DNA of 64,000 nucleotides, taken from Candidatus Omnitrophota bacterium (GTDB lineage Bacteria > Omnitrophota > Gorgyraeia > Duberdicusellales > 4484-171). The position numbers were made by a program, and so were the translations under genes. The stretch is taken from positions 1 through 64,000 of the forward strand of contig JAIPGM010000005.1 in NCBI GenBank assembly GCA_021735655.1, read 5' to 3'. The notes below the pieces were generated by a model, which did not search any database, was not told the origin of the DNA, and saw only the letters and a list, made by a program, of their open reading frames with translations. Shown piece by piece: positions 142 to 30,400 of this stretch. Position 1 is the first letter of the stretch. Each line of letters starts with the position of its first letter.

Positions 142-1677
142 ATGGCTAGAGAATACTTAACCCCTACTGAAGCAGCTAAGATACTTAACCTATCACGCCA
201 AGCAGTAATTGAACGAATTAAGGCTGGTTCGCTTTATGCTGAACGGGTTGGTAAACGCTACATCATCCCCCGGAATCAACTCCCTTCTGAAAACGAGACT
301 TTAAACATCAAGAAACCAGCTGAAATCGGAATTTCTCTAAATAAAAAATCGCGAAAAGAGGCTATCAAAAAAGTCTTAGACAAAATAGCCAAAGATAACA
401 TCAGAACAATCCAACTTTGGTTTGTTGATATCTTAGGAATATTAAAGTGTGTCTCAATAACTCAAGGTGAATTAAAGGAAGCCCTTGATCACGGCAAAGG
501 CTTTGATGGCTCGTCAGTGACCGGATTCGCTGAAGCCCAAGAATCCGATATCCTCGCTTTGCCTGATCCCTATACTTTTAAAGTATTGCCTTGGACAGCA
601 AAAGACAATCCAATTGCCAGGATGTTTTGTGATATTTTAAATACTGACTCAACTCCCTATGCCGGAGACCCCCGTTATGTTCTAAAGCGATCTTTGGCCC
701 GAGCTGAGAAACTGGGGCTTACTTTCTTTGTCGGACCGGAGTTAGAATATTTTTATTTCAAATCCGACAAAAAACCAGAAGTAATCGACGAAGGGTCATA
801 TTTTGAACTAATCCCTAATGATCTCGCTGATGTCTTAAGAAACAAAACCGTACGAATACTAGAAGAAATGGGCATTGAAATGGAAGCAACCCACCATGAG
901 GTAGCCCCTTCCCAACATGAAATAGATCCCAAATATAACGACGCCCTTACCATGGCTGATAATGTAATGACCTGTAAATACGTAATCAAGGAAATTGCCC
1001 AACAAAACGGGGTTTATGCAACTTTTATGCCTAAACCTCTATTCGGTGAAAATGGCTCTGGCATGCATGTTCATCAATCACTTTTCAAAGGCGAAAAGAA
1101 CGCCTTTTTTGATAAAAAAGATAAACACCATTTGTCAGCTATAGCTAAAAATTTCATTGCCGGTGAGCTTAAGCATGCGCGAGAAATATCCTCGCTTACC
1201 GCTCAATGGGTAAATTCCTACAAAAGATTGGTCTCCGGTTATGAAGCACCAGTCTATGCCTCCTGGGCTCAAAAGAACCGTACTGCTCTATTAAGGGTTC
1301 CTCTCTATCGACCAGGCAACGAAAAGGCAACTCGAGTCGAATTGCGCTGTCCAGATCCGGCCTGTAACCCTTACCTTGCTTTTGCCGTAATGCTGGCAGC
1401 CGGACTAGAAGGAATCGAAAAAAAATACGAAATTCCTGCACCGGTTGAACCAAACATCTATCATATGGCCATGGAAGAAAGAGAAAGACGAGGATTGACT
1501 TCTCTACCGGGGAATCTCTTTGAAGCAATTATCGAAACAGAAAAAAGTAGCTTCGTAAAAGACACCCTCGGTGAACATATCTTCAATCGTTTCTTATTCA
1601 ATAAGAAGAAAGAATGGGAAGAATACCGTACTCAAATCACCGAACACGAAATTAAAAAGTATTTACCTTTACTTTAA
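142..1677 (+). CDS. Glutamine synthetase type I paralog with a ~70-aa N-terminal excisionase/MerR-like HTH extension.
   Basis: 511-aa ORF. Strong RBS (taggaggaaat) before the ATG. N-terminus LTPTEAAKILNLSRQAVIERIKAGSLYAERVGKRYIIP matches the excisionase-family HTH pattern. The rest is full-length GS-I (DGSS, MPKPLFGENGSGMHVHQSL, NPYLAFA motifs), about 60 % identical to the second glnA in this window. Confidence 0.85.
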   Translation: MAREYLTPTEAAKILNLSRQAVIERIKAGSLYAERVGKRYIIPRNQLPSENETLNIKKPAEIGISLNKKSRKEAIKKVLDKIAKDNIRTIQLWFVDILGILKCVSITQGELKEALDHGKGFDGSSVTGFAEAQESDILALPDPYTFKVLPWTAKDNPIARMFCDILNTDSTPYAGDPRYVLKRSLARAEKLGLTFFVGPELEYFYFKSDKKPEVIDEGSYFELIPNDLADVLRNKTVRILEEMGIEMEATHHEVAPSQHEIDPKYNDALTMADNVMTCKYVIKEIAQQNGVYATFMPKPLFGENGSGMHVHQSLFKGEKNAFFDKKDKHHLSAIAKNFIAGELKHAREISSLTAQWVNSYKRLVSGYEAPVYASWAQKNRTALLRVPLYRPGNEKATRVELRCPDPACNPYLAFAVMLAAGLEGIEKKYEIPAPVEPNIYHMAMEERERRGLTSLPGNLFEAIIETEKSSFVKDTLGEHIFNRFLFNKKKEWEEYRTQITEHEIKKYLPLL

Positions 1678-2795
1678 AAATACTTTTCTAAAATAATTTT
1701 TACTCTTTCAGCGATAGCCAAGCAAGCGGTTAAGCCGGGAGATTCAATGCCAATCAAGTTAATAAAACCCGGTAGGCCTTTTTGGCTTTCTTCAGAAATC
1801 ACAAAATCCCTGAAAGCTTCATCCTCCTTCTGCAATTTAGCCCTTACCCCAACTGTATCCGGTATTAAATCTTCAAGTTCTAAAGACGGTAAGATTTTTT
1901 TTACTGAATTGTAAAAATTGACCTTGTCAGTTTCATCGATATTGTAGTCAATTTCTGAAATATACTTTGCATCCGGACCCAAGCGTAATCCGCCGACTAG
2001 ATCCGGAGTAACATGAATACCTAAGTCTATCTTTGTTGCCGGTGGGTAAACTAAATGCTTTATTGAAAACTTCTCAGGCTTCTTAATTCTAAAGTATTGC
2101 CCTTTACAGTAGCTAAGTTTGTAGTTTTCAGCTTGAATATTAATTCCTGCCATTTCTGCTATTTTATCAGAACAAAGACCAGCAGCATTAACTACTATTT
2201 TACTTTCAAAGGAAAAAGACTCTCCGTTAGGCTCTTTTACCATAACTTTATAGCCAGAACTCTGCTTATCAATTCCAACAACTTCAGTCAAAAAAGAAAA
2301 AGTTACCCCTTGTTGCTTAGCTCGATTATAAAGAAAATTCATTAAACCATGAGAATCTATTATTCCAGAGTTAGGAGAAAAAAGGACTTTTTTGGCTCGA
2401 ACTTGTGGCTCTAAGCGACATAATTCGGCTGGATCTAAAAAGTTTAAATTCTTAACTCCACTATTTAAAGCATTGTCATAAATTGCTTCTATTTTTTGAA
2501 CTTCATCTTGGTTGCAAGCAACAACTAACTTTCCTAAACGCTTAAAAGAGATGCCTTGTTCTAGGCATAACTGATACAAAAGCTTGTTGCCTTGAATGCA
2601 GGTTTGAGCTTTTAACGATCCTGACCGGTAATAGAGGCCGGAATGGATTACTTCGGAATTTCGTGAGCTTGACTCCTGTCCGAAAGAATCATTCTTTTCG
2701 ATAGCAACAATATTTTGGTTAAACTTAGAAAGCTGAGAAGCTATGCTTAGGCCAACGACCCCGGCTCCAATTATGGTAATATCATTCTGCTGCAT
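1674..2795 (-). CDS. FAD-dependent oxidoreductase, L-2-hydroxyglutarate oxidase/dehydrogenase (LhgO)-like.
   Basis: N-terminal GAGVVG dinucleotide-binding motif. Family-level similarity to the LhgO / glycerol-3-P dehydrogenase-like flavoprotein fold. Its stop is convergent with and overlaps the stop of the fused GS. Confidence 0.7.
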   Translation of the reverse strand: MQQNDITIIGAGVVGLSIASQLSKFNQNIVAIEKNDSFGQESSSRNSEVIHSGLYYRSGSLKAQTCIQGNKLLYQLCLEQGISFKRLGKLVVACNQDEVQKIEAIYDNALNSGVKNLNFLDPAELCRLEPQVRAKKVLFSPNSGIIDSHGLMNFLYNRAKQQGVTFSFLTEVVGIDKQSSGYKVMVKEPNGESFSFESKIVVNAAGLCSDKIAEMAGINIQAENYKLSYCKGQYFRIKKPEKFSIKHLVYPPATKIDLGIHVTPDLVGGLRLGPDAKYISEIDYNIDETDKVNFYNSVKKILPSLELEDLIPDTVGVRAKLQKEDEAFRDFVISEESQKGLPGFINLIGIESPGLTACLAIAERVKIILEKYF

Positions 2796-2837
2796 TTTCC
2801 TTATTATAATCGAAAAATGGTAGAAACAAAATAGTAA

Positions 2838-4436
2838 TTACCGCTTGAGCAAGGCAGCCTTAATGAAATCCCTAAATAAAGGGTGAGCAGAGTCAGGTTT
2901 AGATTTAAATTCAGGATGGAACTGGCAAGCTACAAACCAAGGATGGTTTTTTAATTCAATTATCTCAACTAAATTCTTTTGAGGATTAATCCCTGAAAAA
3001 ATCATACCTGCCTTTTCCATTAAATCTCTATATTTATTATTAAACTCATAACGATGTCGATGGCGTTCAGAAATTTTTTCTTTCTTATAGGCCTTGTAAA
3101 CTGTCTCTTTTTTCTTCAAGCAACAATCGTAAGCACCCAAACGCATCGTTGCCCCCTTGTCGCTTAGCATCTTTTGATTTTCAAGTATTGAAATAACCGG
3201 ATATTTAGTATTTTTATTAAACTCTGAAGAATTTGCATTTTTCAGTCCACAAACATTACGCGCAAATTCAATTGCTGCCGTCTGCATCCCTAAACATATG
3301 CCTAAAAAAGGAATTTTATTTTCCCGGGCGAATTTAACTGCTTTGATCTTTCCTTCGATGCCACGGTTACCAAAACCACCCGGGATTAAAATTCCTTTAA
3401 CTTCTTTTAAATATTTCAAAGCATCTTTCTTTTCAATATCTTCAGAGTCAACTTTCTTTATCGAAAGTTTTACGTTATTCTCAATTGCCCCATGGACTAA
3501 GGCCTCATAAATTGACTTATAGGCATCCTGGAGGGCTATATATTTTCCAACAACTGCAATTTCAACCTTTTTTGTCGGAGATTTAACTCTCTTAAGCATC
3601 TTAATCCAATCGGTCAAGTTATCTTCTGGACATTTTAGATTAAGTAACCTAATAATTAACCTGTCTAGTCCCTCCTTCTTGAAAGCAACCGGAACCTCAT
3701 AAATACTTTTTACATCAATAGCAGTAACCACCGCCTCCTTATCGACATTACAAAAAAGAGAAATTTTTTCCCGTGCCTCTTTATTGAGATTTCTTTCGGT
3801 TCTGCAAACAATAATATCGGGAATAATTCCTATCTCACGAAGTTTACCAACACTATGTTGGGTCGGTTTAGTTTTAATCTCTCCGGCCGACTTTATATAA
3901 GGAACTAATGTTACATGGATGTTAATTGCATAGTCGCGACCTAAATCAAGTCGCAGCTGTCTAATTGCCTCCAGGAAAGGGAGTCCCTCGATATCCCCTA
4001 CAGTCCCTCCGATTTCAACAATTACAACATCAACCTGCTGTTTGGTGGCAACTTTGATAATACCTTTTTTTATCTCATCGGTTATGTGAGGAATAATCTG
4101 AACAGTTTTTCCTAAATAATCACCGTGTCTCTCTTTGGAAATAACCGAGTAATATATTTTTCCAGTAGTAATATTATTATCTTTGGTTAACTTAGAATTA
4201 GTAAAACGTTCATAGTGTCCTAGATCTAAATCAGTCTCTGCTCCGTCGTCGGTAACGTAAACCTCTCCGTGTTGAAAAGGATTCATGGTCCCCGGATCAA
4301 CATTAATATAAGGATCACACTTGATAATTGTGACTTTAAGCCCCCGGGATTCAAGAAGCTTGCCAATTGCAGCCGCAGCAATCCCCTTGCCTAAACTCGA
4401 TACGACACCACCGGTAATAAAAATATATTTTGCCAT
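2838..4436 (-). CDS. pyrG: CTP synthase.
   Basis: N-terminus [18 protein letters not shown]...[13 protein letters not shown] and C-terminal GATase domain (GICLGMQ, HPEF) are canonical PyrG. Confidence 0.95.
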
Positions 4437-5812
4437 TACCTCCTCCTTTCTAAAGATCGTTTAGAAAACTTTTTAGGAATTTTTGTCGGATATTTACCAC
4501 TAAAACAAGCTGCGCAAAACTTATCTTTCTCCAAAGGCATAGATTTTAACATACCCTCAAGGCTTAGATACTCCAAACTGTCTAAACCGATAAATTTTTT
4601 AACCTCTTCAATCGTACGACTCGAAGCTATTAACTCTTTCTTTGTCGGAAAGTCTATCCCATAAAAACAAGGTGATATGATTGGCGGGCAACTTACCCGC
4701 ATGTGGATTTCTTTAGCCCCGAACTCCCGTAAAGTTCTCACTCGACTCTTGGAAGTTGTTCCTCGAACAATTGAATCCTCAATAACTACTATTCTTTTAC
4801 CTTTCAAAACATCTCTAATCGGATTAAGCTTCACTCTAACTCTAAAATCTCTAATATATTGAGACGGTTGAATGAAAGTTCGTCCAATGTAATGATTACG
4901 AATCATGCCAACCTCCAAGGGTATACCGCTTTCTTCAGCATAACCCATAGCTGCATAGTTTCCCGAATCAGGAACCGGCATCACTATATCAGCGTCTACC
5001 GAGCATTCTTGGGCAAGTTGTCTACCTAACTGTTTACGCGCTAGATAAACGTTGTTGCCAAAAATATTGCTATCCGGCCTGGCAAAATAAATATATTCAA
5101 AAATACATGACGCTTGATTGCTTTTAGCAAATGGCTTTACCGACTCCAAACTATCTTTTTTTATAAATACTACCTCACCCGGGGCAACATCTCTAACATA
5201 AGTAGCACCAATTAAATCTAAAGCACATGTTTCGCTAGCTAACACATAAACTCCATCAAGTTTTCCTAAGCAGAGTGGACGAAATCCCTGAGGATCTCTT
5301 GCTCCAACTAAAACATCATCCACCATTAATGTTAACGAATAGGCCCCAGCAAGTTTAGAAAGAACTTCAATAACTTTATCTTTAGTACTTTTATTGGACG
5401 ATTTAGCTAAAAGATGGACAATCACCTCTGAATCCATGGTGCTTTGGAAAATAGAACCCTTCTCTTCTAACTCCTTGCGCAAAACTGAAGTATTGGTGAG
5501 ATTCCCATTATGAGCAATAGCTATGTGGCCTTTTTTATGATTAACCAAGAAAGGTTGAATATTTTTAGAAATGCTTGATCCGGTCGTTGAATAACGGACA
5601 TGTCCGACAGCTACATCTCCCCGCAGAGCTTTTATTGCTCGTTCATCAAAAACATCACCAACCAAACCCATAGCCTTATGATATCTGACTCGCCGTCCGT
5701 CATAAGTAACCACCCCGCAGCTTTCTTCGCCACGATGCTGAAGTGCATACAATCCTAAATAAGCCAAACGCGAAGCATCTTTATGTCCAATAACACCAAA
5801 TATTCCACACAT
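4436..5812 (-). CDS. purF: Amidophosphoribosyltransferase.
   Basis: MCGIFGV N-terminal nucleophile Cys and PRTase domain. One-nucleotide overlap with pyrG. Confidence 0.95.
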
Positions 5813-5833: not shown

Positions 5834-8800
5834 TCAGCTAATATATTCCTGTATTGATTTAACTCCTAATTCACCCTTTAGCGCCGACTCTATACCATTA
5901 ACTGCTGCCTGGGCACCCTGAATCGTAGTGATACAAGGAATTCCATACATTACTGCCATGCTCCTTATCGATTTCATATCTGACTGACCTCTTTGGCCAG
6001 AAGGTGTATTTATTATTAATTTTATTTCGCCGCTCTTAATTAAATCCAATAATTGGCCATCGCCTTCGCTAATTTTTCCAACCTCTTTGGCTAAGATATC
6101 GTTGGAACGAAAAACTTTACAAGTGCCCCTGGTTGCCAATATTTTAAACTTCATATCCTTTAGCTTCTTAGCTATAAAAACAATACTTCTTTTATCGTCA
6201 TTTTTAACACTTATAAATATTTTTCCTTCTAACGGCAAAGCTTGACCAGCTGCTACCTGTGACTTATAAAAAGAAGCTCCGAAAGAACTATCTATACCCA
6301 TAACCTCACCGGTTGACTTCATTTCAGGGCCCAGGAGTATGTCTACTCCGGAAAACCTTGAGAATGGCAAAACCGACTCTTTTACCCCACAATGGAAAAT
6401 TTCCTTCTCCTGAGTAAAACCAATTTCATTCAATGTCTGACCAACCATAACCCTAGCAGCAATCTTAGCTAAGGCTACTCCAGTAACTTTACTCACGAAA
6501 GGTATTGTTCTTGAAGCCCGCGGATTTACTTCCAAAACATAAACGATATCGCCTTTTACGGCAAACTGGATATTAATTAACCCACAAACTTTCAATTCCT
6601 TTGCTAAAAGATGTGTATGTTTTCTTATTGTCCCTATAATTTCATCACTCAACGTGTGTGGCGGAATAACACAGGCTGAATCTCCAGAATGAACACCAGC
6701 CTCCTCAATATGCTCCATAATGCCACCGATAACCGTATCTTTTCCATCAGAAACAGCATCCACATCTACCTCCACTGCATCTTCCAAAAATTTATCAATC
6801 AATATCGGGCGGCCTCCCGAAATATTAACTGCCCCTTTGACAAATTGATCTAAAGATTTTTCATCATAAACTATCTTCATTGATCTTCCACCTAATACAT
6901 AAGAAGGTCTAACTAAAATTGGATAACCGATTTCTTTAGCTATCTTTCGGGCAGATTCTTTTGAAATAGCTGATCCGTTTGGTGGTTGGTTAAGGCCCAA
7001 ATCTTTTATTAATTCCGAAAACTTATCTCTATCCTCGGCTCGGTCAATAGAAGATACTGCTGTACCAATAATTGGCGCACCAGCCGCCTCCAATTTTTTA
7101 GCTAGATTAAGCGGAGTCTGACCGCCCAATTGCACTATTACCCCTTGAGGCTTCTCCTTTTCGATAATATTCATTACATCCTCAAAGGTCAATGGCTCAA
7201 AATAAAGCTTATCCGATGTATCGTAATCGGTTGAAACTGTCTCAGGATTCGAATTAACCATAATTGTTTCAAATCCAGCCTCCCTAAGCGCAAACGCAGC
7301 ATGACAACAGCAATAATCAAATTCTATGCCTTGCCCAATACGATTAGGCCCACCACCCAAAATCATTATTTTTTTGTTCTGAGAAACTCTAGTCTCATCT
7401 TCAGTCTCATAAGTAGAATAATAATATGGTGTATAGGCCTCGAACTCGGCCGCACAGGTATCAACCAACTTAAAAGTAGCGGTAACGCCTTTTTCTTTTC
7501 GTAACTTATTTATCGATAACTCATCCGACCCAATCAAATCAGCTATCTGGCGATCACTAAATCCGTACTGCTTGACCTTCTTTAAAAAAACAGCATTTAG
7601 ATCTTTATTGCTTTTAATTTCTTCCTCAAGCTCAACAATCTGCTTTATGTTATCGATAAACCAAAGGTCTATACCCGTCTGTTCAACAATATCATCCAAC
7701 TGCCAGCCTTTCTGAATAGCGTACTTAATATAAAATATTCTTGAGGCATTTGGCTCTTTTAACCTTAAGCTGATTTTCTCATCGGAAACTTCTTTATAAT
7801 CTGACTTGTTGTCCAGCCCGGTATGGCCAATCTCTAATCCTCGCAAACCTTTTTGAAGGGCTTCCTTAAAAGTTCGACCAATAGCCATAGTTTCTCCGAC
7901 TGACTTCATTGATATCCCCAAAATATCCTTTGCCTCGGGAAACTTTTCAAAAGTAAAACGGGGAATTTTAACTACACAGTAATCTATCACCGGCTCAAAT
8001 GAAGCCGGGGTTTCTTTAGTAATATCGTTTTTAATTTCATCCAGGGTATAGCCCACCGCTAGCTTAGCAGCAAACTTTGCTATCGGAAAACCAGTAGCCT
8101 TACTCGCTAGAGCTGAACTGCGTGAAACTCTCGGGTTCATCTCAATAACTACCATTCTTCCATCTTTAGGGTTGACCGCAAATTGAATATTTGAACCGCC
8201 GGTTTCAACGCCGATGGCTCGAATTATATCAATAGAGGCATCGCGCATTTTTTGATATTCTTTATCAGTTAAGGTTTGAGTCGGAGCCACAGTAATTGAG
8301 TCCCCGGTATGAATGCCCATCGGGTCAAAATTCTCTATCGAACAAACTATAACTACATTATCTTTTTTATCACGCATAACTTCTAATTCATACTCTTTCC
8401 AACCAACGATAGACTCCTCAATAAGGATTTCACTAATCATACTGTTATTTAAGCCTAAAGCGGCTATTTCTTCAAATTGTTTTTGGGTGGTAGCGATGCC
8501 TCCTCCAGTTCCACCAAGAGTAAAGCTGGGCCTAATTATCACTGGCAAGCCTATGGCTTTAACCGCTTCTTTTGCTTCTTTGATGTTGTAAGCTAAGGCA
8601 CTCTTAGGTAAATCCAGCCCAATCTCCTGCATTGTTTTTTTAAAAATTTCCCTGTCTTCAGCCTTTTTTATAGCTTCGCAATCGGCACCAATCATCTTAA
8701 CTCCATACCTGTCTAAAATTCCCTGTTCGAAAACCTTCATCGCCGTATTTAGCCCGGTTTGACCACCTAAGGTAGGTAATAATGCATCCGGAGACTCTTT

Positions 8801-9037
8801 CTTGATGATTTTTTCGACTATCTCGGGAGTTATCGGTTCAATATAGGTTGCATCAGCCATTTGTGGATCAGTCATGATCGTGGCTGGATTAGAGTTAAGA
8901 AGAACCACCTTAAAACCTTCTTCTTTTAAAGCCTTGCAAGCTTGAGCCCCAGAATAGTCAAACTCGCAAGCTTGACCAATTATTATTGGCCCAGAACCAA
9001 TGATTAAAATTTTTTTAATATCCTCTCTTTTAGGCAT
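5834..9037 (-). CDS. carB: Carbamoyl-phosphate synthase large subunit.
   Basis: 1067 aa with duplicated ATP-grasp halves and an MGS-like C-terminus; canonical CarB motifs. Confidence 0.95.
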
Positions 9038-21027: not shown

Positions 21028-21052
21028 CTTACACCTCCGTTTTGTTTATGCT

Positions 21053-21098: not shown

Positions 21099-21228
21099 AT
21101 TGTTTTGAAAGCTTTTTTGCACAAACTTTGTGCTTTTTTGGCTGAAATTTCAGCCCTCAATATATATAAGTAAAAAAATGGGTCTTTTGGTAACCTTTTT
21201 TTTAAAATTTTTTCCTGGCCCATAAAAT

Positions 21229-21570: not shown

Positions 21571-21584
21571 GGTTTACCTCCCTG

Positions 21585-22931
21585 TTATTTAGTAGTAAAT
21601 ATTTCAAATCCAGAATAAGTCTCCATGCCATGCTGGGTGATATCTAAACCCTTTAACTCTTCTTCCCTGGATACTCTCAAGCCGATAAACCGGTCAATCA
21701 GCTTAAACACGGTAAACATCACAACTGACACAAAACTGACGACGGCTAAAACACCCAAAGCCTGAACGCCTAACTGAGCAATACCACCGCCATGAATCAA
21801 ACCATCGCGGGCTAAACCCAATGATTTATGGCCAAAAATACCAACAGCTAAAGTACCCCAAACACCATTCATCATATGTACCGGAACCGCTCCCACCGGA
21901 TCATCAACTCTAATCTTATCAAGAAAAACAGTGCCGACAACCACAATAATACCGCCGATAGCTCCAATAATCATAGCCTCTAAAGGAGTTACAAAGGCAC
22001 AAGGCGCAGTTATCGCCACCAAACCGGCTAAAGCTCCGTTCATAGTCATAGTTAAATCCGGCTTGCCAAACTTTTTCCAGTTAAAAAACATAGCCGATAA
22101 AGCTCCCGCAACTGCAGCCATATTAGTAGTAACAGCAACATGAGCTATTTGACTGCCATCGCCAACACTCAAAGTTGAACCGGGATTAAAACCAAACCAA
22201 GCAAACCATAAAATTAAGGTCCCCAACGATGCTAAAGTCATAGAATGCCCCTCAATAGCATTGGCTGATCCATCTTTATTGAACTTACCAATACGCGGCC
22301 TCAATACAATTGTCCCCATAAGGGCTGCTGTGCCGCCTACAGCGTGAACTACGCTCGATCCGGCAAAATCGGCAAAATTTAAATTACTGAGCCAACCGCC
22401 GCCCCAAATCCAATGGCCAATTATCGGATAAACTGTGGCTGAAATTAAAAATGAATATATAAGATACGCTTTAAACTTCATTCTTTCGGCTACACCACCA
22501 GCAACTATAGTTGCTGCGGCTCCGCAGAATACAGCGTGAAAAAACCAAGCCGCATAGAGAGGCAAATGTCCATCATGAGCGGCATTAACCATAAACCAAC
22601 CCTTAAAGCCCATAAAACCATTTCCGGCGCCAAACATTATGGCATAACCAAATATGAAAAATCCCACAGAAGCCATACAAAAATCTAAAAAGTTATTCAT
22701 CAACACATTACAAGTATTTTTAGCCCTAATTAACCCCGCTTCCAACATACCAAATCCAGCCTGCATGATAAAAACCATGAAGGCTGCAATCATAACCCAA
22801 AGAGTATCAATTCCAGCTACCGTAGCGTAAGCCGTATTCTCATCGGCAAAAACCGACCCTAAAGCCACGGAACTAATTACTCCTAAAAATAATACCGCCG
22901 AAACTAACTTTTTAATTTTTTTTATCTTCAT
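21585..22931 (-). CDS. amt: Ammonium transporter (Amt family), copy 1.
   Basis: 448 aa with signal peptide and 11 TM helices. Amt signatures; 60-70 % similar to copy 2. Confidence 0.92.
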   Translation of the reverse strand: MKIKKIKKLVSAVLFLGVISSVALGSVFADENTAYATVAGIDTLWVMIAAFMVFIMQAGFGMLEAGLIRAKNTCNVLMNNFLDFCMASVGFFIFGYAIMFGAGNGFMGFKGWFMVNAAHDGHLPLYAAWFFHAVFCGAAATIVAGGVAERMKFKAYLIYSFLISATVYPIIGHWIWGGGWLSNLNFADFAGSSVVHAVGGTAALMGTIVLRPRIGKFNKDGSANAIEGHSMTLASLGTLILWFAWFGFNPGSTLSVGDGSQIAHVAVTTNMAAVAGALSAMFFNWKKFGKPDLTMTMNGALAGLVAITAPCAFVTPLEAMIIGAIGGIIVVVGTVFLDKIRVDDPVGAVPVHMMNGVWGTLAVGIFGHKSLGLARDGLIHGGGIAQLGVQALGVLAVVSFVSVVMFTVFKLIDRFIGLRVSREEELKGLDITQHGMETYSGFEIFTTK

Positions 22932-22982
22932 CTACGTCCCCCCTTTTTTATTCGTACCGAATGGAACTTATTTTGTTTTTAT

Positions 22983-24329
22983 TTATTGAGTAGTAAAAAT
23001 TTGAAACCCTGAGTATGCTTCCATACCATGCTCATCGATATCTAAACCTTTTAACTCTTCTTCTTTGGATACTCTTAAGCCTATAGTAGCTTTAACTATT
23101 TTAAAAAGGATCAAAGCTGTACCAAACACCCAAGCAAACACCGACACAACACCAATTAGCTGAGTAATAAATTGGCCTATACCCCCACCAAAAAATAAAC
23201 CATCAACTCCACCATAAGATTTTTGGGCAAATAATCCTGCAGACAGTGTCCCCCAAGCGCCACACACACCATGAACCGATACGGCGCCGACCGGATCATC
23301 GATATGAAGCACCTTGTCTATAAATTCAACACTCAACACAACAAGAATGCCGCCGATAGCGCCAATTATGATTGCGCTTAAGGGTGAAACGTTAGCACAA
23401 GGAGCAGTTATCGCTACCAATCCAGCAAGTGCACCATTTAAAGCCATGCTAGTATCCGGCTTACCAAATCTTATCCAAGCCGTAAACATAGCTGCAGTAG
23501 CTCCGGCTGCAGCTGCTAAATTTGTAGTTACCGCAATTACAGCAATACTTAAATCTGTCCCCGCAGTTGTGCTTCCGGCATTAAATCCAAACCATCCAAA
23601 CCAAAGAATAAACACACCCAAAGCTGCCAAAGGGATACTATGACCAGGAATAGCATTTGATGAACCATCTTTATTATATTTGCCAAGTCTAGGGCCAAGC
23701 ATCATTGCTCCGGCTAAAGCTGCCCAACCGCCGACCGAATGAACCACAGTTGAACCAGCAAAGTCAATCATTCCCTTAGCTGATAACCAGCCACCACCCC
23801 AAATCCAATGTCCGGCAACCGGATAAATTATGGCCGTAATAAAAACACTGTACCAAAGATAACCGCTGAACTTTGTTCTTTCAGCCATAGCTCCGGAAAC
23901 TATTGTGGCCGCGGTAGCGGCAAACACTACTTGAAACATCCAAAAAGCAAATTGCCACAAACCATCAGCAGTAGCCGGATTAGCTGCACTCAAAAAAAAT
24001 CCGTCTTTGCCAAAAAGGCCAAAAGTACTGGTTCCAAACATTATGCCAAAGCCAACAGCCCAATAGGTAATTGAACCAACTGAAAAATCCATAAGGTTCT
24101 TCATCATAATGTTACAAGCATTTTTGGCCCGGGTAAAACCGGTCTCAACCATGGCAAAGCCGGCTTGCATAAAAAATACCAAGAATGCTGCGACCAAAAC
24201 CCATACTGTATCAATAGAAACAGCGTTGCTGGCTGAAGTTGCCTCCTCAGCAAAAGCCGAGAAGCTCAACCCCAATAGCACAATACCGATACTAAACATT
24301 AATGATAATTTTTTTAGTTTTATTAACAT
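22983..24329 (-). CDS. amt: Ammonium transporter (Amt family), copy 2.
   Basis: 448 aa with signal peptide, an Amt-family paralog, in tandem with copy 1. Confidence 0.92.
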   Translation of the reverse strand: MLIKLKKLSLMFSIGIVLLGLSFSAFAEEATSASNAVSIDTVWVLVAAFLVFFMQAGFAMVETGFTRAKNACNIMMKNLMDFSVGSITYWAVGFGIMFGTSTFGLFGKDGFFLSAANPATADGLWQFAFWMFQVVFAATAATIVSGAMAERTKFSGYLWYSVFITAIIYPVAGHWIWGGGWLSAKGMIDFAGSTVVHSVGGWAALAGAMMLGPRLGKYNKDGSSNAIPGHSIPLAALGVFILWFGWFGFNAGSTTAGTDLSIAVIAVTTNLAAAAGATAAMFTAWIRFGKPDTSMALNGALAGLVAITAPCANVSPLSAIIIGAIGGILVVLSVEFIDKVLHIDDPVGAVSVHGVCGAWGTLSAGLFAQKSYGGVDGLFFGGGIGQFITQLIGVVSVFAWVFGTALILFKIVKATIGLRVSKEEELKGLDIDEHGMEAYSGFQIFTTQ

Positions 24330-24344
24330 AAGGATACCTCTCTC

Positions 24345-25136
24345 TTAGAATCCGTAGCTAACTTCAAAACCACCCCATAATTCTTCATCACCATTATTAA
24401 TCTCTTCTTCATGATTAATCGTATAGTGCAAACTAGGAGTTAGACTGAAACCACCCAAAGCATAAGAAGTTGATAATGAAAGTTCAGTCGCATAAAGCGA
24501 GCTAGGTTCAAGATCGGCAACTCCGTCATTGCCCCAGTTAACTACTCCTAAGGCAAGAGTTTGTCCTTCTTGAATTAAAGAATGCTTCAGAAGCGGGAGT
24601 TCAGCATCAAAACCCCAAGAATAATACCAACCCTCATCAGGACCACCGGATTTGGCTTGAAAATCATAGCCGGCAAAAAAGCTTGCTGAAACGTCAATTG
24701 GAAGAAAAGGTATTTTATTCAAGGTTCCGGAAAGCCAAGACTCAGAAACATCAGCCGTGCTGGCTGTATTAGGAAAGTCAAAGTAAGTATATCCGGTTGA
24801 AAAATTAAATTGATCATCGAATAGATCTCGAGAAAAAGTTACAGTATAATCAAGCTCTTCGCCGTCTTCATGCCCACTATTCATCGGAAATGATCCCCAG
24901 ACATTGAATGAAAGGTCAACCCCATCGATAAGCCCAGGAAATCCAATATCAATACTCGGCTGGTGTGCTCCATCATTATCGCTATAGAGATCTTGCCCAC
25001 GCCAGATATATCTAGAAACATAAGTATCAGTTACGGTAACCTCAACCGGCTGGCCAGCAAACTCAAAAGCATAAATATCCCCTAAAAAAATAACACTAAA
25101 TATTATATTCATTAACCAAACTGATATTTTTTTCAT
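24345..25136 (-). CDS. Putative outer-membrane beta-barrel protein (porin-like), first gene of the amt operon.
   Basis: Signal peptide, alternating amphipathic beta-strand pattern, aromatic-rich, C-terminal ...SYGF. 15-nt gap to amt. Confidence 0.6.
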   Translation of the reverse strand: MKKISVWLMNIIFSVIFLGDIYAFEFAGQPVEVTVTDTYVSRYIWRGQDLYSDNDGAHQPSIDIGFPGLIDGVDLSFNVWGSFPMNSGHEDGEELDYTVTFSRDLFDDQFNFSTGYTYFDFPNTASTADVSESWLSGTLNKIPFLPIDVSASFFAGYDFQAKSGGPDEGWYYSWGFDAELPLLKHSLIQEGQTLALGVVNWGNDGVADLEPSSLYATELSLSTSYALGGFSLTPSLHYTINHEEEINNGDEELWGGFEVSYGF

Positions 25137-25149
25137 AATTTTCTCCCTT

Positions 25150-25200
25150 AAAAATAAAAAAGCGCATTATTCCAAATATCCACCTTTGGAATAACACGCC
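25150..25200 (-). terminator. Intrinsic-terminator-like hairpin plus U-run in the 5' leader immediately upstream of the OMP-amt operon RBS.
   Basis: On the minus strand: GCGUGUUAUUCCAAA-(loop)-UUUGGAAUAAUGCGC (~14 bp stem) followed by UUUUUUAUUUUU, then the RBS AAGGGAG and ATG. There is no room for a promoter between the terminator and the start. Confidence 0.6.
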
Positions 25201-25245
25201 TTTGTGTTTTTACTTAACCTCTACAATCAATTAAGTAAAAAAACT

Positions 25246-25758
25246 CTATCTTTGGTAACCTTTATTTTTCCATTTTTGAACTATTTTCTTTTTATGCTTA
25301 ATAATCATAACATGAGAACAATCAAGCTCTTTGGCTATTTCACGAACAGTATATCCTTTCAACAAATAAGACAAAACCGATTTATCCTTATCAGTTAAAC
25401 CTAAACTATTAATTTCATCAATCGTAAGATTATGATCTATATTTGGTATAAAGTCGGCTTTTTCATCCTTAAGAATATCGCCCAAGGTTTGTCCATTAGG
25501 AGAAATTAACTTATCCAAGCTTGAAATATTCGCCTTAGGCCTACCTTTTCTTAAGAAATTCTGTAGATGAAACTCACAGCCCTTAATTACATAGGCTTGA
25601 TTAATGCCGATCGGCAACCCATTAGAATAATTTTCCCAAAGATAAAGACACATCTCTTGGTATAGATCTTCCTCACTATAAAAACCACGCAGCAAATGCT
25701 TGCGTGCAACAAATCTTAAGCTGGGAGTTATTTTTTCTAATAATATCCTAAAGTCCAT
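25246..25758 (-). CDS. Small sigma-70-family (ECF-like) sigma factor or sigma-like regulator.
   Basis: 170 aa. Region-2-like DLYQEMCLYLWENY. Region-4 HTH LLKGYTVREIAKELDCSHVMIIKHKKKI. Confidence 0.6.
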   Translation of the reverse strand: MDFRILLEKITPSLRFVARKHLLRGFYSEEDLYQEMCLYLWENYSNGLPIGINQAYVIKGCEFHLQNFLRKGRPKANISSLDKLISPNGQTLGDILKDEKADFIPNIDHNLTIDEINSLGLTDKDKSVLSYLLKGYTVREIAKELDCSHVMIIKHKKKIVQKWKNKGYQR

Positions 25759-25777
25759 AAACTTTACCCCTGAAAGT

Positions 25778-25818
25778 CAAAAAGCCCCCATTAGACTTCT
25801 TATTGTCTAGTGAGGGCT
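25778..25818 (-). terminator. Terminator/attenuator-like hairpin in the leader of the sigma-like gene.
   Basis: On the minus strand: AGCCCUCACUAGAC-(loop)-GUCUAAUGGGGGCU (13/14 pairs) followed by UUUUUG. It lies 20 nt upstream of the RBS and downstream of a candidate extended -10. Confidence 0.55.
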
Positions 25819-25848
25819 TCTTTGCCAAAATTAACTTCTTTGTTATTA

Positions 25849-25884
25849 ATTTATACCATGTAAAGTAAAAATCTATTTGTCAAG
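25849..25884 (-). promoter_or_regulatory. Candidate promoter: TTGACA-like -35 and extended -10 TGgTATAAAT on the minus strand, upstream of the leader hairpin.
   Basis: cttgacaa ... catggtataaat read on the minus strand. The 22-nt spacer is non-canonical, so the call rests on the extended -10. Confidence 0.3.
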
Positions 25885-27228
<1,344 letters not shown>

Positions 27229-27323
27229 TTAACTTTTACCAATAAATACTATAACTAACTAGAACAAATGCTCCAAGGGTATGATCCATCTTCCATCTTT
27301 ACTAAATCTTTCCATAAAGTTCT

Positions 27324-28721
27324 CTACCATTTACCTGTTTCTAAATACTGATCAATTGCCAAAGCAGCGGCTTTTCCAGCCCCCATAGCTAAGATTACCG
27401 TAGCTGCACCAGTAGCAATATCTCCTCCGGCAAAAACCCCTTTTTTGCTGGTTTTGCCGGTGTCAGTATCGACTACGATATTTCCCTTTCTTCCTATTTC
27501 AAGACCACTAGTTGTAGAAGGAATCAAGGGATTCGGGCTATTGCCAATAGCTACAACCACTAAATCTACCGGAAGCTTAAAATTTGAGCCCTCGATCGGA
27601 ACTGGACGCCGGCGACCTGAAGTATCCGGTTCACCCAAATCCATTCGCAAACATTCCATATCTTTTACCCAACCTTTTTCATCAGCATGATAGGCAATCG
27701 GCAGGGTTAGAAACTCAAAGATTACTCCTTCTTCTTCGGCATGATGGATCTCTTCTTCTCTAGCCGGCATCTCCTTACGTGAGCGCCGATAGATAATCCT
27801 AGCTTCTTCTGCACCTAAGCGAAGGGCGGTTCTTACTGAATCCATAGCTACATTACCACCACCAATCACAGCAACGTGTTTTCCTTTTATGATTGGAGTA
27901 TCATATTCAGGAAACTTATAGGCCTTCATTAAATTTACTCGAGTTAAATACTCATTGGCCGAATATATACCGTTAGAGTTTTCACCGGGTAAGTCCATAA
28001 ACCAAGGTAAACCAGCCCCGCTACCGATAAATACCGCATCAAATTCATTTAATAGCTCATCTACAGTTTCAAGTTTTCCAACCACAAAGGAAGTTACTAC
28101 TTCCACCCCTAAAGACTTTATATATTCAACCTCTCGTTCAACTACCTTTTTCGGTAAACGAAACTCAGGAATCCCATATATTAACACCCCGCCCATCTTA
28201 TGCAGGGCTTCAAATATTTTTACCTTATGCCCTAATTTAGCTAACTCGCCAGCCACAGTAAGCCCGGCTGGGCCGCCGCCAACTACAGCTACCTTTTTAC
28301 CGGAAGAAGCAACTTTTCTAGGAGCTTCTCGGTTGGTTTGCTCTGCCTCCCAATCAGCGATAAACCGCTCTAGGCGGCCGATACCTACTGGTTCGCCCAT
28401 TTTAGATAATATACAAACCTTCTGGCACTGCTCCTCCTGAGGACAAACTCTACCGCAGATTGCTGGAAGACTATTAGTTTCCTTCATCTTCTTTATTGAG
28501 CCCTTTAAATCTCCCTTAGCAATTAAATCGATAAAGCCGGGGATATCGATACCCACCGGACAACCATCTATACATAAGGGTTTTTTACATTGTAAACAAC
28601 GCTTAGCTTCGCAAATAGCTTCATCAAGCGAATAACCATAAGGCACTTCTTTAAAGTTATTTCTTCGCTCGGACGGATCCTGTTCGCGCATTGGTACCAT
28701 TTTAGGGTCAGGTTTATTCAT
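27324..28721 (-). CDS. GltD-like NAD(P)H oxidoreductase subunit: NfnB / SudA-type (GOGAT small-subunit homolog).
   Basis: 465 aa with Cys clusters CLQCKKPLCIDGCP and CGRVCP, and VAVVGGGPAGL. Paired with a PyrK-like subunit. A genuine gltBD is present elsewhere in the window, so NfnAB is more likely than GOGAT. Confidence 0.75.
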   Translation of the reverse strand: MNKPDPKMVPMREQDPSERRNNFKEVPYGYSLDEAICEAKRCLQCKKPLCIDGCPVGIDIPGFIDLIAKGDLKGSIKKMKETNSLPAICGRVCPQEEQCQKVCILSKMGEPVGIGRLERFIADWEAEQTNREAPRKVASSGKKVAVVGGGPAGLTVAGELAKLGHKVKIFEALHKMGGVLIYGIPEFRLPKKVVEREVEYIKSLGVEVVTSFVVGKLETVDELLNEFDAVFIGSGAGLPWFMDLPGENSNGIYSANEYLTRVNLMKAYKFPEYDTPIIKGKHVAVIGGGNVAMDSVRTALRLGAEEARIIYRRSRKEMPAREEEIHHAEEEGVIFEFLTLPIAYHADEKGWVKDMECLRMDLGEPDTSGRRRPVPIEGSNFKLPVDLVVVAIGNSPNPLIPSTTSGLEIGRKGNIVVDTDTGKTSKKGVFAGGDIATGAATVILAMGAGKAAALAIDQYLETGKW

Positions 28722-29547
28722 TGTTAATTTGCTTATTTAATTTGCACATTGACTTATCCTCATGCTGCAAAAATCTCTTCTGCCTGGTCATCAACTCATT
28801 AAAATCTACCTTGTGTCCGTCAAAGTCCGGGCCATCAACACAGGTAAACTTAGTTTTATTATTAACCGTAACTCGACAGCCACCGCACATACCAGTTCCG
28901 TCAATCATAATTGCATTAAGACAAACTATAGTTTCTATCTTGTATCCTCTAGTTAAATCAGAAACCGCCTTCATCATTACAACTGGCCCAACACAAAATA
29001 CCAAACCCCAGTCTGAACTTTCACTAAGCAAGCGCTTTAAAGGATCGATTACCAGGCCTTTTTCACCAAGTGAGCCATCATCAGTAGTAATATAAAGCTG
29101 GTCTGAAAACTCCTTAACCTGATCGCGCAAGATCACTAACTTTTCAGTGCGGCCGCCTAAAATTGAGCTTATCTCACACCCAGCTTTTTTAAAAGCCTTA
29201 ACTACCGGCAAAAGCTCAGCAATACCTACACCGCCACCGACAACAATAACCTTTCCATAATTCTTAATCTCTGTGGGTTTGCCTAAGGGTCCGACTAAAG
29301 AATAAAGTGAATCTCCAACTGCTAGTTTACCAAGCAACTTAGTAGTGTAGCCTACCTCTTGAAAAATAATTGTAATCAACCCTTTTTCTTTATCGACATC
29401 AACAATAGTCAAAGGAATACGTTCACCAGCCTCATTAACCATCAACACAACAAACTGACCGGGTAATGCCTTTTTGGCAATAAGCGGTGATTGGATAACA
29501 AACTTGGTTAAATCTTTAGCAATCGACTCTTTAACGATAATTTTCAC
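28714..29547 (-). CDS. PyrK/ferredoxin-NADP reductase-like FAD/[2Fe-2S] subunit (NfnA / SudB-type).
   Basis: 277 aa. FAD/NAD-binding fold and C-terminal CGGC...C cluster. Eight-nucleotide overlap with the GltD-like gene. Confidence 0.75.
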   Translation of the reverse strand: MKIIVKESIAKDLTKFVIQSPLIAKKALPGQFVVLMVNEAGERIPLTIVDVDKEKGLITIIFQEVGYTTKLLGKLAVGDSLYSLVGPLGKPTEIKNYGKVIVVGGGVGIAELLPVVKAFKKAGCEISSILGGRTEKLVILRDQVKEFSDQLYITTDDGSLGEKGLVIDPLKRLLSESSDWGLVFCVGPVVMMKAVSDLTRGYKIETIVCLNAIMIDGTGMCGGCRVTVNNKTKFTCVDGPDFDGHKVDFNELMTRQKRFLQHEDKSMCKLNKQINNE

Positions 29548-29639
29548 TCTTGTCTCCCCTTACCCTTACATTCTGTCAATTTTTCAAAAATAGCACAGAA
29601 AATAAAAAAACGCCTTTTCTTTGCGCTGCTGTGCAAAAA

Positions 29640-29672
29640 AAAGACGTCCTTGTCTCCTGTATAAATATACCA
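29640..29672 (-). promoter_or_regulatory. Candidate sigma70-like promoter (TTGACA-16-TATATT) upstream of the nfnA-nfnB-gdhA unit.
   Basis: Minus strand: cacTTGACAattcgatttagattggTATATTtatac, about 100 nt upstream of the nfnA start, followed by a structured leader. Confidence 0.4.
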
Positions 29673-29698
29673 ATCTAAATCGAATTGTCAAGTGATTT

Positions 29699-30400
29699 TC
29701 AGTCTTTTTTTATTTCTTGAGCTAAGATAACTGCCTCAGCAATTTCCTTCATCGAAACCCGCTTGTCCATACTTATCTTTCTTATTAAAGCATAGGCTTT
29801 ATCTTCGGTTAATTTTTGCTGATTCATCAAAATGCCTTTGGCCCGCTCGATCTTTTTACGGGCCTGAAGCTCTTCCTGAACTATCTGAGTCTTAACCATT
29901 AACTCCGTATTCTCAATAGCAACTGCGGCCTGATTAGCCACAGTACTGAGAAGCTTAATGTCGCCTTTGGTGAACTTATACTCTGTAGTCGTATAGCAGT
30001 TAATAACTCCGACTGCTCTTCGCTTAACCATCATCGGCACACTAAGCATTGAAACCAACCCTAGCAATTTAGCCAGCTTTTTTTCTTTATAGCTCTTATC
30101 TTTGGAAACATCTAAAATAGTTATCGGTTTTTTGTCATGAGCAACCAGACCGACTATACCTTCGCCTATCTTTAAACTCCGCTCCTTTAAATATTCGCTA
30201 TTTAAAGCCTGGGTAGCTCTTATTTTTAACTCTTTTTTCTTATCATCTAAAAGCCATAAAGCACAAATCTTGGCCTTCATTACATTAGCAGTTAAAGTTA
30301 CTATCAACTTCAATACGTCTTCCAAATATAAATCAGAAGTAATAGCAATGCTAATTTTACTTAAAGTATCGATGTAAGCTTTGTAAGAAGTTTTTGGCAT
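29699..30400 (-). CDS. GAF-ANTAR RNA-binding antitermination regulator.
   Basis: 233 aa. N-terminal GAF-like domain. The C-terminus (ELQARKKIERAKGILMNQQKLTEDKAYALIRKISMDKRVSMKEIAEAVI) is a typical ANTAR coiled-coil/helical domain. Confidence 0.8.
   Translation of the reverse strand: MPKTSYKAYIDTLSKISIAITSDLYLEDVLKLIVTLTANVMKAKICALWLLDDKKKELKIRATQALNSEYLKERSLKIGEGIVGLVAHDKKPITILDVSKDKSYKEKKLAKLLGLVSMLSVPMMVKRRAVGVINCYTTTEYKFTKGDIKLLSTVANQAAVAIENTELMVKTQIVQEELQARKKIERAKGILMNQQKLTEDKAYALIRKISMDKRVSMKEIAEAVILAQEIKKD

Follow-up and report, generated by a model that had tools for sequence, protein, structure and literature searches.

In enterobacteria, the Ntr regulon comprising glnALG, glnK-amtB and gltBD is controlled by NtrBC and sigma-54, with the genes being dispersed in E. 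coli, and in Bacillus the glutamine synthetase (GS) is paired with a transcription factor in nitrogen control. NfnAB represents the NADH-dependent reduced ferredoxin:NADP oxidoreductase. The genes amtB and glnK form a widespread conserved operon pair (e.g. PMC3831643). ANTAR control of nitrogen genes is also already established; its targets have been defined by two hairpins with stems of at least 3 bp and hexaloops carrying A1 and G4, the second hairpin overlapping a terminator, and they are mostly situated upstream of genes for PII, ammonium transporters, GS and glutamate synthase (PMC3369931). The GAF-ANTAR architecture has been listed, but not characterized (PMC3369931; 2025 review PMC12591593). 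On the control of nitrogen assimilation in Omnitrophota, and on the cluster described here, the literature searched contained nothing relevant. The present analysis concerns a 64-kb stretch of DNA (the window) from a metagenome-assembled genome of Candidatus Omnitrophota, in which a nitrogen block of approximately 30 kb occupies the minus strand between positions 30400 and 1674. This block is predicted to consist of at least five co-oriented transcription units, which together would form a lineage-conserved nitrogen-assimilation supercluster. The whole model, i.e. a multi-unit supercluster equipped with ANTAR-type leaders and a cluster-specific promoter, is regarded as reasonably likely.

Gene content, conservation and predicted transcription units of the nitrogen block

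Genes were taken from a listing of open reading frames (ORFs) and from Pfam and NCBIfam scans. An earlier note on this DNA had named 21 genes with their positions, and all of them were borne out by the ORF calls and domain searches, in addition to a GS fused to a helix-turn-helix (HTH) domain at 142-1677. Following the minus strand, the genes of the block and the convergent GS fusion at its end are:

29699 to 30400, minus strand: GAF-ANTAR regulator (Pfam GAF 70 bits, ANTAR PF03861 70 bits)
28714 to 29547, minus strand: nfnA-like FAD/NAD-binding subunit (Pfam DHODB_Fe-S_bind; NCBIfam PRK06222 387 bits, cut-off 220)
27324 to 28721, minus strand: nfnB-like subunit, a GltD-like Fe-S flavoprotein (Pfam; NCBIfam TIGR01316 599 bits, cut-off 472)
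25885 to 27213, minus strand: gdhA, glutamate dehydrogenase (Pfam ELFV_dehydrog)
25246 to 25758, minus strand: 170-aa divergent sigma-70/extracytoplasmic function (ECF)-like protein (Pfam GerE; NCBIfam TIGR02937)
24345 to 25136, minus strand: omp, 263-aa secreted protein, first gene of the amt unit (signal peptide, C-terminal ...SYGF)
22983 to 24329, minus strand: amt copy 2, ammonium transporter (Pfam Ammonium_transp)
21585 to 22931, minus strand: amt copy 1, ammonium transporter (Pfam Ammonium_transp)
21229 to 21570, minus strand: glnB/glnK, PII signal protein (Pfam P-II)
19696 to 21027, minus strand: glnA, type I GS (Pfam)
18962 to 19690, minus strand: stand-alone class-I glutamine amidotransferase, GATase (Pfam GATase; NCBIfam PRK07053-like, under cut-off)
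18676 to 18897, minus strand: fis, 73-aa stand-alone Fis/NtrC-type HTH_8 protein (ORF; NCBIfam Fis and NtrC C-terminal domain)
14144 to 18676, minus strand: gltB, glutamate synthase large subunit, class-II GATase (Pfam GATase_2, Glu_syn_central, Glu_synthase, GXGXG)
12706 to 14172, minus strand: gltD, glutamate synthase small subunit (Pfam Fer4_20 and Pyr_redox_2)
10106 to 12694, minus strand: 862-aa PPDK_N-domain protein between gltD and carA (Pfam)
9030 to 10109, minus strand: carA, carbamoyl-phosphate synthase small (glutaminase) subunit (Pfam CPSase_sm_chain and GATase)
5834 to 9037, minus strand: carB, carbamoyl-phosphate synthase large subunit (Pfam CPSase_L domains and MGS)
4436 to 5812, minus strand: purF, amidophosphoribosyltransferase, class-II GATase (Pfam GATase_7/6 and Pribosyltran)
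2838 to 4436, minus strand: pyrG, CTP synthase, class-I GATase (Pfam CTP_synth_N and GATase)
1674 to 2795, minus strand: LhgO/GlpO-like FAD oxidoreductase (Pfam DAO)
142 to 1677, plus strand: HTH_17-GS fusion (Pfam PF12728, PF03951 and PF00120)

The conservation of the block, for which the earlier note had proposed a comparative check, was analyzed in two scans, one of GTDB species genomes with the 862-aa protein as anchor and one of metagenomes with GlnA as anchor. Each scan provided 80 loci (labelled L), on which all window proteins were placed by tblastn. In the closest relative (L164/L165) the full order GAF-ANTAR-nfnA-nfnB-gdhA-sigma-omp-amt-glnB-glnA-GATase-fis-gltB-gltD-PPDK_N-carA-carB-purF-pyrG is kept and is likewise followed by the convergent HTH-GS gene; it differs in having one amt instead of two and in the absence of the LhgO-like gene. 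The core sigma-(omp)-amt-glnB-glnA-fis-gltB-gltD-PPDK_N is kept in about 20 further Omnitrophota contigs (GlnA at least 83% identical, e.g. L003-L008 and L083-L103), among which the carA/carB/purF/pyrG tail varies. Looser nitrogen clusters containing GAF-ANTAR were found in L105, L106, L126-L132, L151, L162 and L163, and the complete genome CP070684.1 shows the arrangement nfnA-nfnB-gdhA-gltB'-glnA-GAF-ANTAR-carB-DUF1846-DAO. Moreover, the linkage of nfnAB with gdhA is also found in L010, L064, L069, L074, L163 and L164. The proteins encoded in contigs sharing the gene order are only 65-90% identical.

Because the gene order is kept in relatives and cis-elements are common to several units, the clustering of these genes is not due to chance. 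The opposite explanation, that their adjacency is a functionally meaningless by-product of strand bias and coincidence, could refer to the co-directionality of the whole window, in which the minus strand carries 49 of 51 genes and the GC skew is negative throughout. Hence, the unidirectional arrangement pointed out in the earlier note does exist but is uninformative. The preserved order in many independent contigs at the given protein identity, the shared cis-elements and the unrelated functions of the genes outside the block all speak against coincidence, which is already contradicted by synteny and therefore seems next to impossible. The former statement that the block represents a nitrogen regulon rather than chance adjacency holds regarding the conserved order and the common cis-elements, whereas the mechanism appears to involve several units instead of long polycistrons. 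Likewise, five glutamine amidotransferases (GltB, CarA, PurF, PyrG and the stand-alone class-I GATase) are indeed present, but to call them most of the glutamine amidotransferases was an overstatement, since the count covers this window alone.

Regarding the operon structure, the earlier note had assumed long polycistronic transcripts over 24 kb, based on tight spacing and overlaps. Our analysis rather predicts that unit 1 comprises nfnA-nfnB-gdhA, unit 2 the ECF-like sigma gene, unit 3 omp-amt-amt-glnB, unit 4 glnA and the GATase gene, and unit 5 fis-gltB-gltD-PPDK_N-carA-carB-purF-pyrG, possibly including the lhgO-like gene. The nfnA and nfnB genes overlap by 8 nt and both subunits score above the NCBIfam thresholds, while the stand-alone GATase gene starts 5 nt after glnA and has an equal position in L164/L165. 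From fis to pyrG the genes overlap, as the fis stop does with the gltB start, or are separated by gaps of at most 21 nt, and lhgO follows 42 nt further; this spacing fits one translationally coupled unit. Operon-like spacing is thus restricted to unit 5, and the rest of the block is interrupted by predicted strong, conditional terminators, one each ahead of nfnA, of the sigma gene, of omp-amt and of glnA. Within 25758-1674, predicted strong terminators (25203-25158 and 21101-21056) occur together with promoter-like motifs (25260-25233 and 21195-21168), hence, judged from these predictions, this stretch is not a single operon.

It could nevertheless be argued that one or two very long transcripts, running from the sigma-like gene or from glnA to the LhgO-like gene, start at ordinary promoters and that the clustering alone provides co-regulation. 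The overlapping stop and start codons from fis to pyrG and the short gaps from glnA to lhgO (all at most 64 nt) would fit such transcripts, as does the spacer between the GATase gene and fis, in which just a 7-bp AU-rich hairpin but no strong terminator is seen in the window. However, the strong U-tract terminators before omp and glnA are each located 3' of a conserved promoter-like motif, and in relatives without the GATase gene glnA has its own terminator directly after it, which is then followed by the dyad before fis. Very long transcripts are therefore unlikely, and the division into at least five units is preferred.

Predicted leader attenuators, their putative regulator and the promoter-like motif

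Units 1 to 4 would each start with an ANTAR-type leader composed of a hexaloop hairpin and a terminator just before the ribosome-binding site (RBS). The leaders and the other cis-elements of the block are:

29664 to 29691, minus strand: sigma-70-type promoter-like site TTGACA-16-TGgTATATT before the nfnA leader (best match, 11/12 plus TG, of an 18-kb scan)
29596 to 29657, minus strand: nfnA leader, GGAGAC-AAGGAC-GUCUUU (hairpin 29657-29640), overlapping a 19-bp U-tract terminator (z = -3.5, descriptor match)
25776 to 25845, minus strand: sigma leader, UAAC-AAAGAA-GUUA, 5-nt linker, GGC-AAAGAA-GCC (hairpins 25845-25815; z = -4.1, looser scan)
25233 to 25260, minus strand: promoter-like motif before the omp-amt leader, in overlap with the final codons of the sigma-like gene
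25148 to 25207, minus strand: omp-amt leader, ACAC-AAAGGC-GUGU (hairpin 25207-25194), overlapping a 19-bp U-tract terminator (z = -5.5, descriptor match)
21168 to 21195, minus strand: promoter-like motif upstream of the glnA leader, with fixed spacing before glnA kept in relatives
21119 to 21133, minus strand: conserved element GCACAAAGUUUGUGC (also given as GCACAAAGTTTGTGC), GCAC-N7-GTGC, in the glnA leader (16-sequence alignment)
21056 to 21106, minus strand: glnA leader, AAAAC-AAUGGU-GUUUU (hairpin 21106-21091), overlapping the 5' arm of an intrinsic terminator (z = -5.6, descriptor match)
18928 to 18944, minus strand: perfect 17-bp dyad TGCCTAAAATATAGGCA between the GATase gene and fis, with a U-rich tract after it (operator candidate, weak terminator or both)

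Four of the five intergenic leaders fold far better than shuffled sequences, with z from -3.5 to -5.6, while the 110-nt gap between nfnB and gdhA is unstructured. These four fold into strong U-tract terminators ending approximately 5-35 nt before the next RBS; at omp-amt the U-tract ends about 5 nt before it, and at glnA the RBS follows within about 20 nt. In each case the start of the 5' arm of the terminator is made up of the loop and the 3' half of a small alternative A..G.. hexaloop hairpin (P2), which consequently overlaps the intrinsic terminator in all four leaders as known from ANTAR targets. The loops AAGGAC (nfnA), AAAGAA (twice, sigma), AAAGGC (omp) and AAUGGU (glnA) have A1 and G4 and are closed by stems of at least 3 bp. 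Tandem hairpins are present in the sigma leader of the window, where the second hexaloop hairpin overlaps the U-tract terminator, and in some amt and sigma leaders of relatives.

A strict descriptor, for which a strong terminator has to begin with a hexaloop hairpin carrying A1 and G4, was applied with shuffle controls. On both strands of the 64 kb it recovered three of the four leaders plus one weak intragenic match, at a shuffle mean of 0.6; the sigma leader was obtained from a looser scan, which gave many intragenic matches. Over all loci the descriptor matched upstream of glnA (17), sigma (10), gdhA (3), nfnA (3) and amt/omp (4), a set whose loop consensus is partly circular due to the required A1 and G4, such that this point is carried by the unconstrained alignments. 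When 16 glnA leaders were aligned without structural constraint, G4 was found in all of them and A1 in 14, the terminator was 97.7% paired and 5 of its 11 pairs showed compensatory changes, and the P2 stem showed covariation as well (pair 135-148: AU in 10, GC in 5 sequences). Since covariation is found in the terminator and in the alternative P2 stem, both structures are under selection. A corresponding alignment of nine amt/omp leaders gave G4 in 9/9 and A1 in 8/9, with a covarying stem and two tandem hexaloop hairpins in some of them; loop A3/G4 is invariant in this alignment, and the omp-amt element is present in L164. Sigma leaders of relatives contain comparable attenuators, often two in series. 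Equivalent elements are furthermore located before orthologs in L162-L165, namely before those of L164 (nfnA among them), before gdhA of L162, and before nfnA and a glutamate-synthase gene of L163.

Two further observations concern these sequences. The descriptor also matches 15 times inside PPDK_N coding regions over the loci L002-L081, which probably represents conserved coding sequence mimicking the pattern. In the public annotation, a 44-aa ORF is placed in the glnB-glnA spacer (L001 992-1126, corresponding to about 21223-21089 on the minus strand of the window). It is probably spurious as a gene, since both the promoter motif and the hairpins of the leader fall within it and relatives show no conservation of the spacer in its upstream part.

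The candidate regulator of the leaders is encoded at the edge of the block. It has a one-component architecture, in which ANTAR (PF03861) is joined to a GAF sensor domain. Its ANTAR part matches the Rv1626 and NasR chains, its GAF part matches PtsP GAF structures, and its orthologs are 74-92% identical across Omnitrophota and always situated beside nitrogen genes. The GAF domains of PtsP and of NifA-type proteins are sensors of 2-oxoglutarate/glutamine. Because the GAF domain of the Omnitrophota protein is closest to those of PtsP/EI-Ntr and NifA-type proteins, nitrogen status, in the form of 2-oxoglutarate and/or glutamine, is by analogy its most likely signal. The GAF-ANTAR protein would bind the leader hairpins once its GAF domain senses the nitrogen status, and its binding would block terminator formation, such that ammonium uptake, GS and the NADPH-dependent glutamate dehydrogenase branch are switched on together. 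Gene content, gene order, the conserved and covarying RNA structures and the distribution of the motif are observed directly, whereas which protein binds which site, the ligand and the direction of the regulation are points that we infer.

A second layer of control could be provided by the sigma-like protein. The motif GGTTACC-N14-TTTACTT has two matches in the window versus 0 expected, one before omp-amt and one before glnA. In relatives 25 more copies are found on the coding strand at fixed spacing, and the identified downstream genes are glnA or amt/omp. Among the loci with enough upstream sequence, the motif occurs in 7 of 8 with the sigma-like gene compared to 0 of 30 without it; the close relatives L089 and L094 lack both. 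The protein contains a region 2-like sequence, EDLYQEMCLYLWE, and a region 4/GerE HTH, the Pfam matches being weak for Sigma70_r2/r4 and significant for GerE. As is characteristic of ECF factors, a motif of the -35/-10 type is located near its own gene and the genes it might control; hence the sigma-like protein probably reads the GGTTACC-N14-TTTACTT promoters, which we propose with moderate confidence. With the sigma gene itself being situated behind an ANTAR-type attenuator, a feed-forward cascade onto units 3 and 4 would result.

Alternatively, the hairpins might be ordinary 3' terminators of the GAF-ANTAR, gdhA, sigma and glnB genes, and GGTTACC-N14-TTTACTT might be an operator for a DNA-binding regulator. 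Each terminator is indeed located 3' of a stop codon, GGTNACC is palindromic, and three DNA-binding proteins are encoded in or beside the cluster (the Fis-type HTH protein, HTH-GS and the sigma-like protein with its GerE HTH). However, the roughly 5-35 nt from the U-tract to the next RBS leave no space for a promoter, covariation links the terminator arm to the hexaloop-forming segment that precedes the terminator, and the motif has a constant orientation and a fixed 28-nt spacing as in -35/-10 elements. Simple gene-end terminators are therefore judged very unlikely, and the hairpins are further treated as leader attenuators.

Several observations nevertheless weigh against the proposed roles of the GAF-ANTAR and sigma-like proteins. 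Within the window, the canonical pair of hexaloop hairpins exists only at the sigma leader, just one hexaloop hairpin is seen in each of the omp and nfnA leaders, and at glnA the upstream hairpin (P1), with its loop of 3 or 7 nt, may be a DNA operator instead. Moreover, transcription from the extended -10 predicted before the sigma gene would begin within the first hairpin, and the sigma-leader attenuator may therefore act on read-through from gdhA. No Rfam family, and thus no known riboswitch or leader family, matched the whole window at the gathering score, and 20900-30500 searched at E<=10 gave chance-level matches only; hence the ANTAR assignment rests on the descriptor and the neighboring gene. 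The sigma-like protein aligns end to end with TIGR02937 at 37 bits versus a cut-off of 42.9, and no anti-sigma gene was seen. Finally, the sequences from related lineages are not independent, and the co-occurrence counts therefore overstate the support.

Given these observations, the leaders could be real attenuators that are not read by GAF-ANTAR but act as small metabolite riboswitches or as targets of another RNA-binding protein. This possibility is favored by the missing canonical second hexaloop hairpin in three of the four window leaders and by the extra conserved hairpins of the glnA leader, the GAF-ANTAR protein being linked to the leaders through the co-localization of its gene. On the other hand, the elements are tiny, consisting of a 3-5 bp stem and a hexaloop without a conserved junction or pocket of the riboswitch type, and none matches Rfam, while loop positions 1 and 4 obey the ANTAR rule (PMC3369931) and the GAF-ANTAR gene adjoins such clusters in every long contig examined. 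A different reader of the leaders appears rather unlikely, and the GAF-ANTAR protein remains the preferred one.

Unit 5 carries a conserved 17-bp dyad before fis. The motif TGCnyAAAAnnTAGGCA, related to the 17-bp dyad, is present upstream of fis in 14 of 27 loci compared to 0.017 expected per 120 nt. The fis product has HTH_8 in L001/L165, and the position of its gene before gltB is kept in relatives. The dyad would probably be bound by the 73-aa Fis-type HTH protein or by the HTH-GS fusion. It resembles the GCACAAAGUUUGUGC element of the glnA leader, and both have a length like NtrC sites. The latter element is 100% pairable in 16 sequences, with three of its six pairs being compensatory and all one-sided changes giving G-U; hence, it may be an RNA hairpin (P1), an NtrC-like DNA operator, or both. 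A sigma-54 -24/-12 reading of the fis dyad and of GCAC-N7-GTGC was rejected, as the GG is missing and the distance between the GC elements exceeds that of such promoters by 2 nt. The fis dyad is retained as a candidate operator.

The 862-aa protein, the GS fusion and neighboring genes

The 862-aa protein of unit 5 is composed of an N-terminal KaiC/RecA/Elp4-like fold without Walker A, a PPDK_N ATP-grasp domain, which is the sole domain recognized by sequence, and a C-terminal region of about 200 aa belonging to no known family. The Walker A position of the KaiC-like domain is occupied by an invariant non-P-loop sequence, i.e. the P-loop of KaiC/RecA ATPases is missing, whereas the PPDK_N ATP-grasp of the dikinase family is present. 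Neither the swivel-His domain (PF00391) nor the phosphoenolpyruvate (PEP)/pyruvate TIM barrel (PF02896) was matched, nor did a search of the C-terminal part by itself at E<=10 reveal them. The NCBIfam PpsA/Rph models score far under their cut-offs, and a PDB sequence search yielded weak ATP-grasp matches only. An identity as canonical dikinase (PpsA/PPDK/Rph) was thus rejected, because the swivel-His and PEP-binding domains were not detected. PEP synthase, PPDK and rifampin phosphotransferase have a swivel phospho-His domain, and PpsA and PPDK also the PEP/pyruvate TIM barrel, neither of which was detected in the 862-aa protein; compared to these dikinases it has an additional N-terminal KaiC/RecA-like domain and a context of nitrogen assimilation instead of gluconeogenesis or antibiotic resistance.

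The family is present in at least 595 species genomes (821 representatives at E<=1e-30) and includes long forms of about 1470-1500 aa with two PPDK_N modules. Of 53 species-representative loci from other phyla (less than 65% identity), 32 carry a gene of nitrogen assimilation at a distance of up to 3 kb, with gdhA in 21 and amt in 8 cases. Across phyla (loci L010-L081) the neighbors comprise gdhA, amt-glnB, glutamate synthase (GOGAT), carAB, NrpR and NifA-like activators. In Syntrophia-type loci the family gene directly adjoins NrpR, and in Planctomycetota-type loci a GAF/sigma-54/HTH_8 NifA-like activator is encoded 4 nt upstream of it. Nothing relevant on an association of PPDK_N with gdhA was found in the literature searched. 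Our best guess is that the protein has an ATP-dependent role, either regulatory or modifying, in the metabolism of nitrogen or glutamate. More specifically, the family might represent a new component of nitrogen-status control, acting as an ATP-dependent modifier or sensor on the flux through glutamate dehydrogenase/GOGAT or on nitrogen regulators, within a multi-part Omnitrophota circuit; this proposal is put forward tentatively, with clear reserve. If it is true, the Omnitrophota nitrogen circuit, leading from GAF-ANTAR via the sigma factor to ANTAR-gated promoters and including HTH-GS, has several parts without characterized counterpart.

The HTH-GS fusion scores 504.7 bits with NCBIfam GlnA (cut-off 429) and 33 bits with the excise domain (cut-off 28.8), its HTH_17 being excisionase/MerR-like. 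Its gene and the end of the block are convergent, with an equal position in L165 (20467-22002), and in L162 (8218-9753) the fusion is found beside GAF-ANTAR. The fusion was present in all 120 of the 120 best Omnitrophota clusters at 69-91% identity, its gene being either oriented divergently from GAF-ANTAR or situated at the end of the nitrogen cluster. By analogy with Bacillus, it may be a one-polypeptide version of the pairing of GS with a transcription factor. The omp product, for which the Pfam search gave no match, is probably an outer-membrane beta-barrel as judged from its sequence features; its orthologs precede amt in L091, L093 and L164.

The product of the gene at 1674-2795 belongs, based on its domain and scores, to the LhgO/type-2 GlpO group of FAD-dependent oxidoreductases. 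It reaches 235 bits with NCBIfam LhgO NF008726 (cut-off 299) and 208 bits with GlpO-II (cut-off 460). The gene is absent from the cluster of the closest relative (L165), and the L163 nitrogen cluster contains a 65% identical copy. The former suggestion that it generates 2-oxoglutarate is not supported by the sub-cut-off score and the absence in the closest relative, and it was rejected as an integral 2-oxoglutarate producer, with L163 being the single supporting co-occurrence. In L163 a DUF1846 gene also adjoins the LhgO-like DAO gene, and in nitrogen clusters of other Omnitrophota (L162 13520-16507; L163 14507-17166) DUF1846 genes recurrently have carB or a GATase_7 gene as neighbor.

The gene asnB, mentioned in the earlier note as located further downstream, was found by the gene scan (57338 to 59278, minus strand, 646 aa). 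A link to the block was not seen, and asnB was rejected as a block member, because it is 27 kb away behind unrelated genes and without a leader element. It adjoins an isocitrate/isopropylmalate dehydrogenase-family gene (region 56065-59278, minus strand), and neither an ANTAR-type leader nor the GGTTACC motif occurs there. A tRNA scan of the window found none.

At the other edge, the nitrogen genes end at 30400 and type IV pilus genes start at 30411. The latter (pilM/N/O-like, T2SSF, T2SSE, pilins; 30411-38864, minus strand) separate GAF-ANTAR from genes for a GAF histidine kinase and three single-domain response regulators at 38885-41402, which directly adjoin GAF-ANTAR in the closest relative (L164 8599-10717). 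As the pilus genes are absent between them in this relative, the pilus block looks like an insertion. The histidine kinase and response regulator set may belong to the nitrogen circuit. A DUF2490 protein, putatively of the outer membrane, is encoded at 45067-45759 (minus strand), and in L162 (10810-11463) its gene directly follows GAF-ANTAR. A serA-like and a serC-like gene followed by a Rex-type redox regulator are located at 48513-51410 (minus strand); this trio is also found upstream of the L164 nitrogen cluster.

Significance and comparison with known systems

Omnitrophota are abundant and nearly all uncultivated, and the block offers a compact testable model. Its parts are the GAF-ANTAR sensor, four leader attenuators, the sigma-like factor with its motif, and a coupled unit of GOGAT, carbamoyl-phosphate and nucleotide amidotransferases. 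Our findings would extend the ANTAR nitrogen regulon to a phylum in which it is undescribed and to an uncharacterized GAF-ANTAR architecture. Three components have no characterized counterpart, namely GAF-ANTAR, the pseudo-KaiC/PPDK_N protein and HTH-GS. Two proteins appear worth experiments, namely the HTH-GS fusion and the PPDK_N family with its link to nitrogen, which is found in hundreds of species.

Compared to the enterobacterial Ntr regulon, the block contains the same functional set of Amt, PII, GS and GOGAT, and includes a Fis/NtrC-type HTH protein and 17-bp dyads of NtrC-like length. In contrast to the dispersed genes of E. coli, they are assembled in one block and their control appears to take place after initiation; neither NtrB/NtrC, an AAA+ activator nor a sigma-54 promoter was found here. 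The amtB-glnK operon (e.g. PMC3831643) is similar in that the PII gene directly follows the amt genes, whereas the unit described here starts with an attenuator and a beta-barrel-like gene, contains two amt copies and is part of a 28-kb cluster. The two-gene pair with the expected domains and scores above the NCBIfam cut-offs resembles NfnAB, but is predicted to be co-transcribed with gdhA behind an ANTAR-type leader.

The closest similarity exists to the ANTAR nitrogen regulons, such as the targets of EutV, NasR and AmiR and those predicted in Desulfotomaculum and Pelobacter (Ramesh et al. 2012, PMC3369931). Shared features are the A1/G4 hexaloops, the 3' hairpin overlapping a terminator, several units per genome, targets of the PII, amt, GS and glutamate-synthase type, and an ANTAR gene nearby. 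The known leaders have two hexaloop hairpins, while most leaders here have one. The known ANTAR regulators are response regulators or are controlled by NIT domains or AmiC, whereas the Omnitrophota block encodes a one-component GAF-ANTAR protein. Finally, in contrast to the known ANTAR regulons, the regulon of the Omnitrophota block appears to be condensed in one place and layered with a dedicated sigma-like factor.

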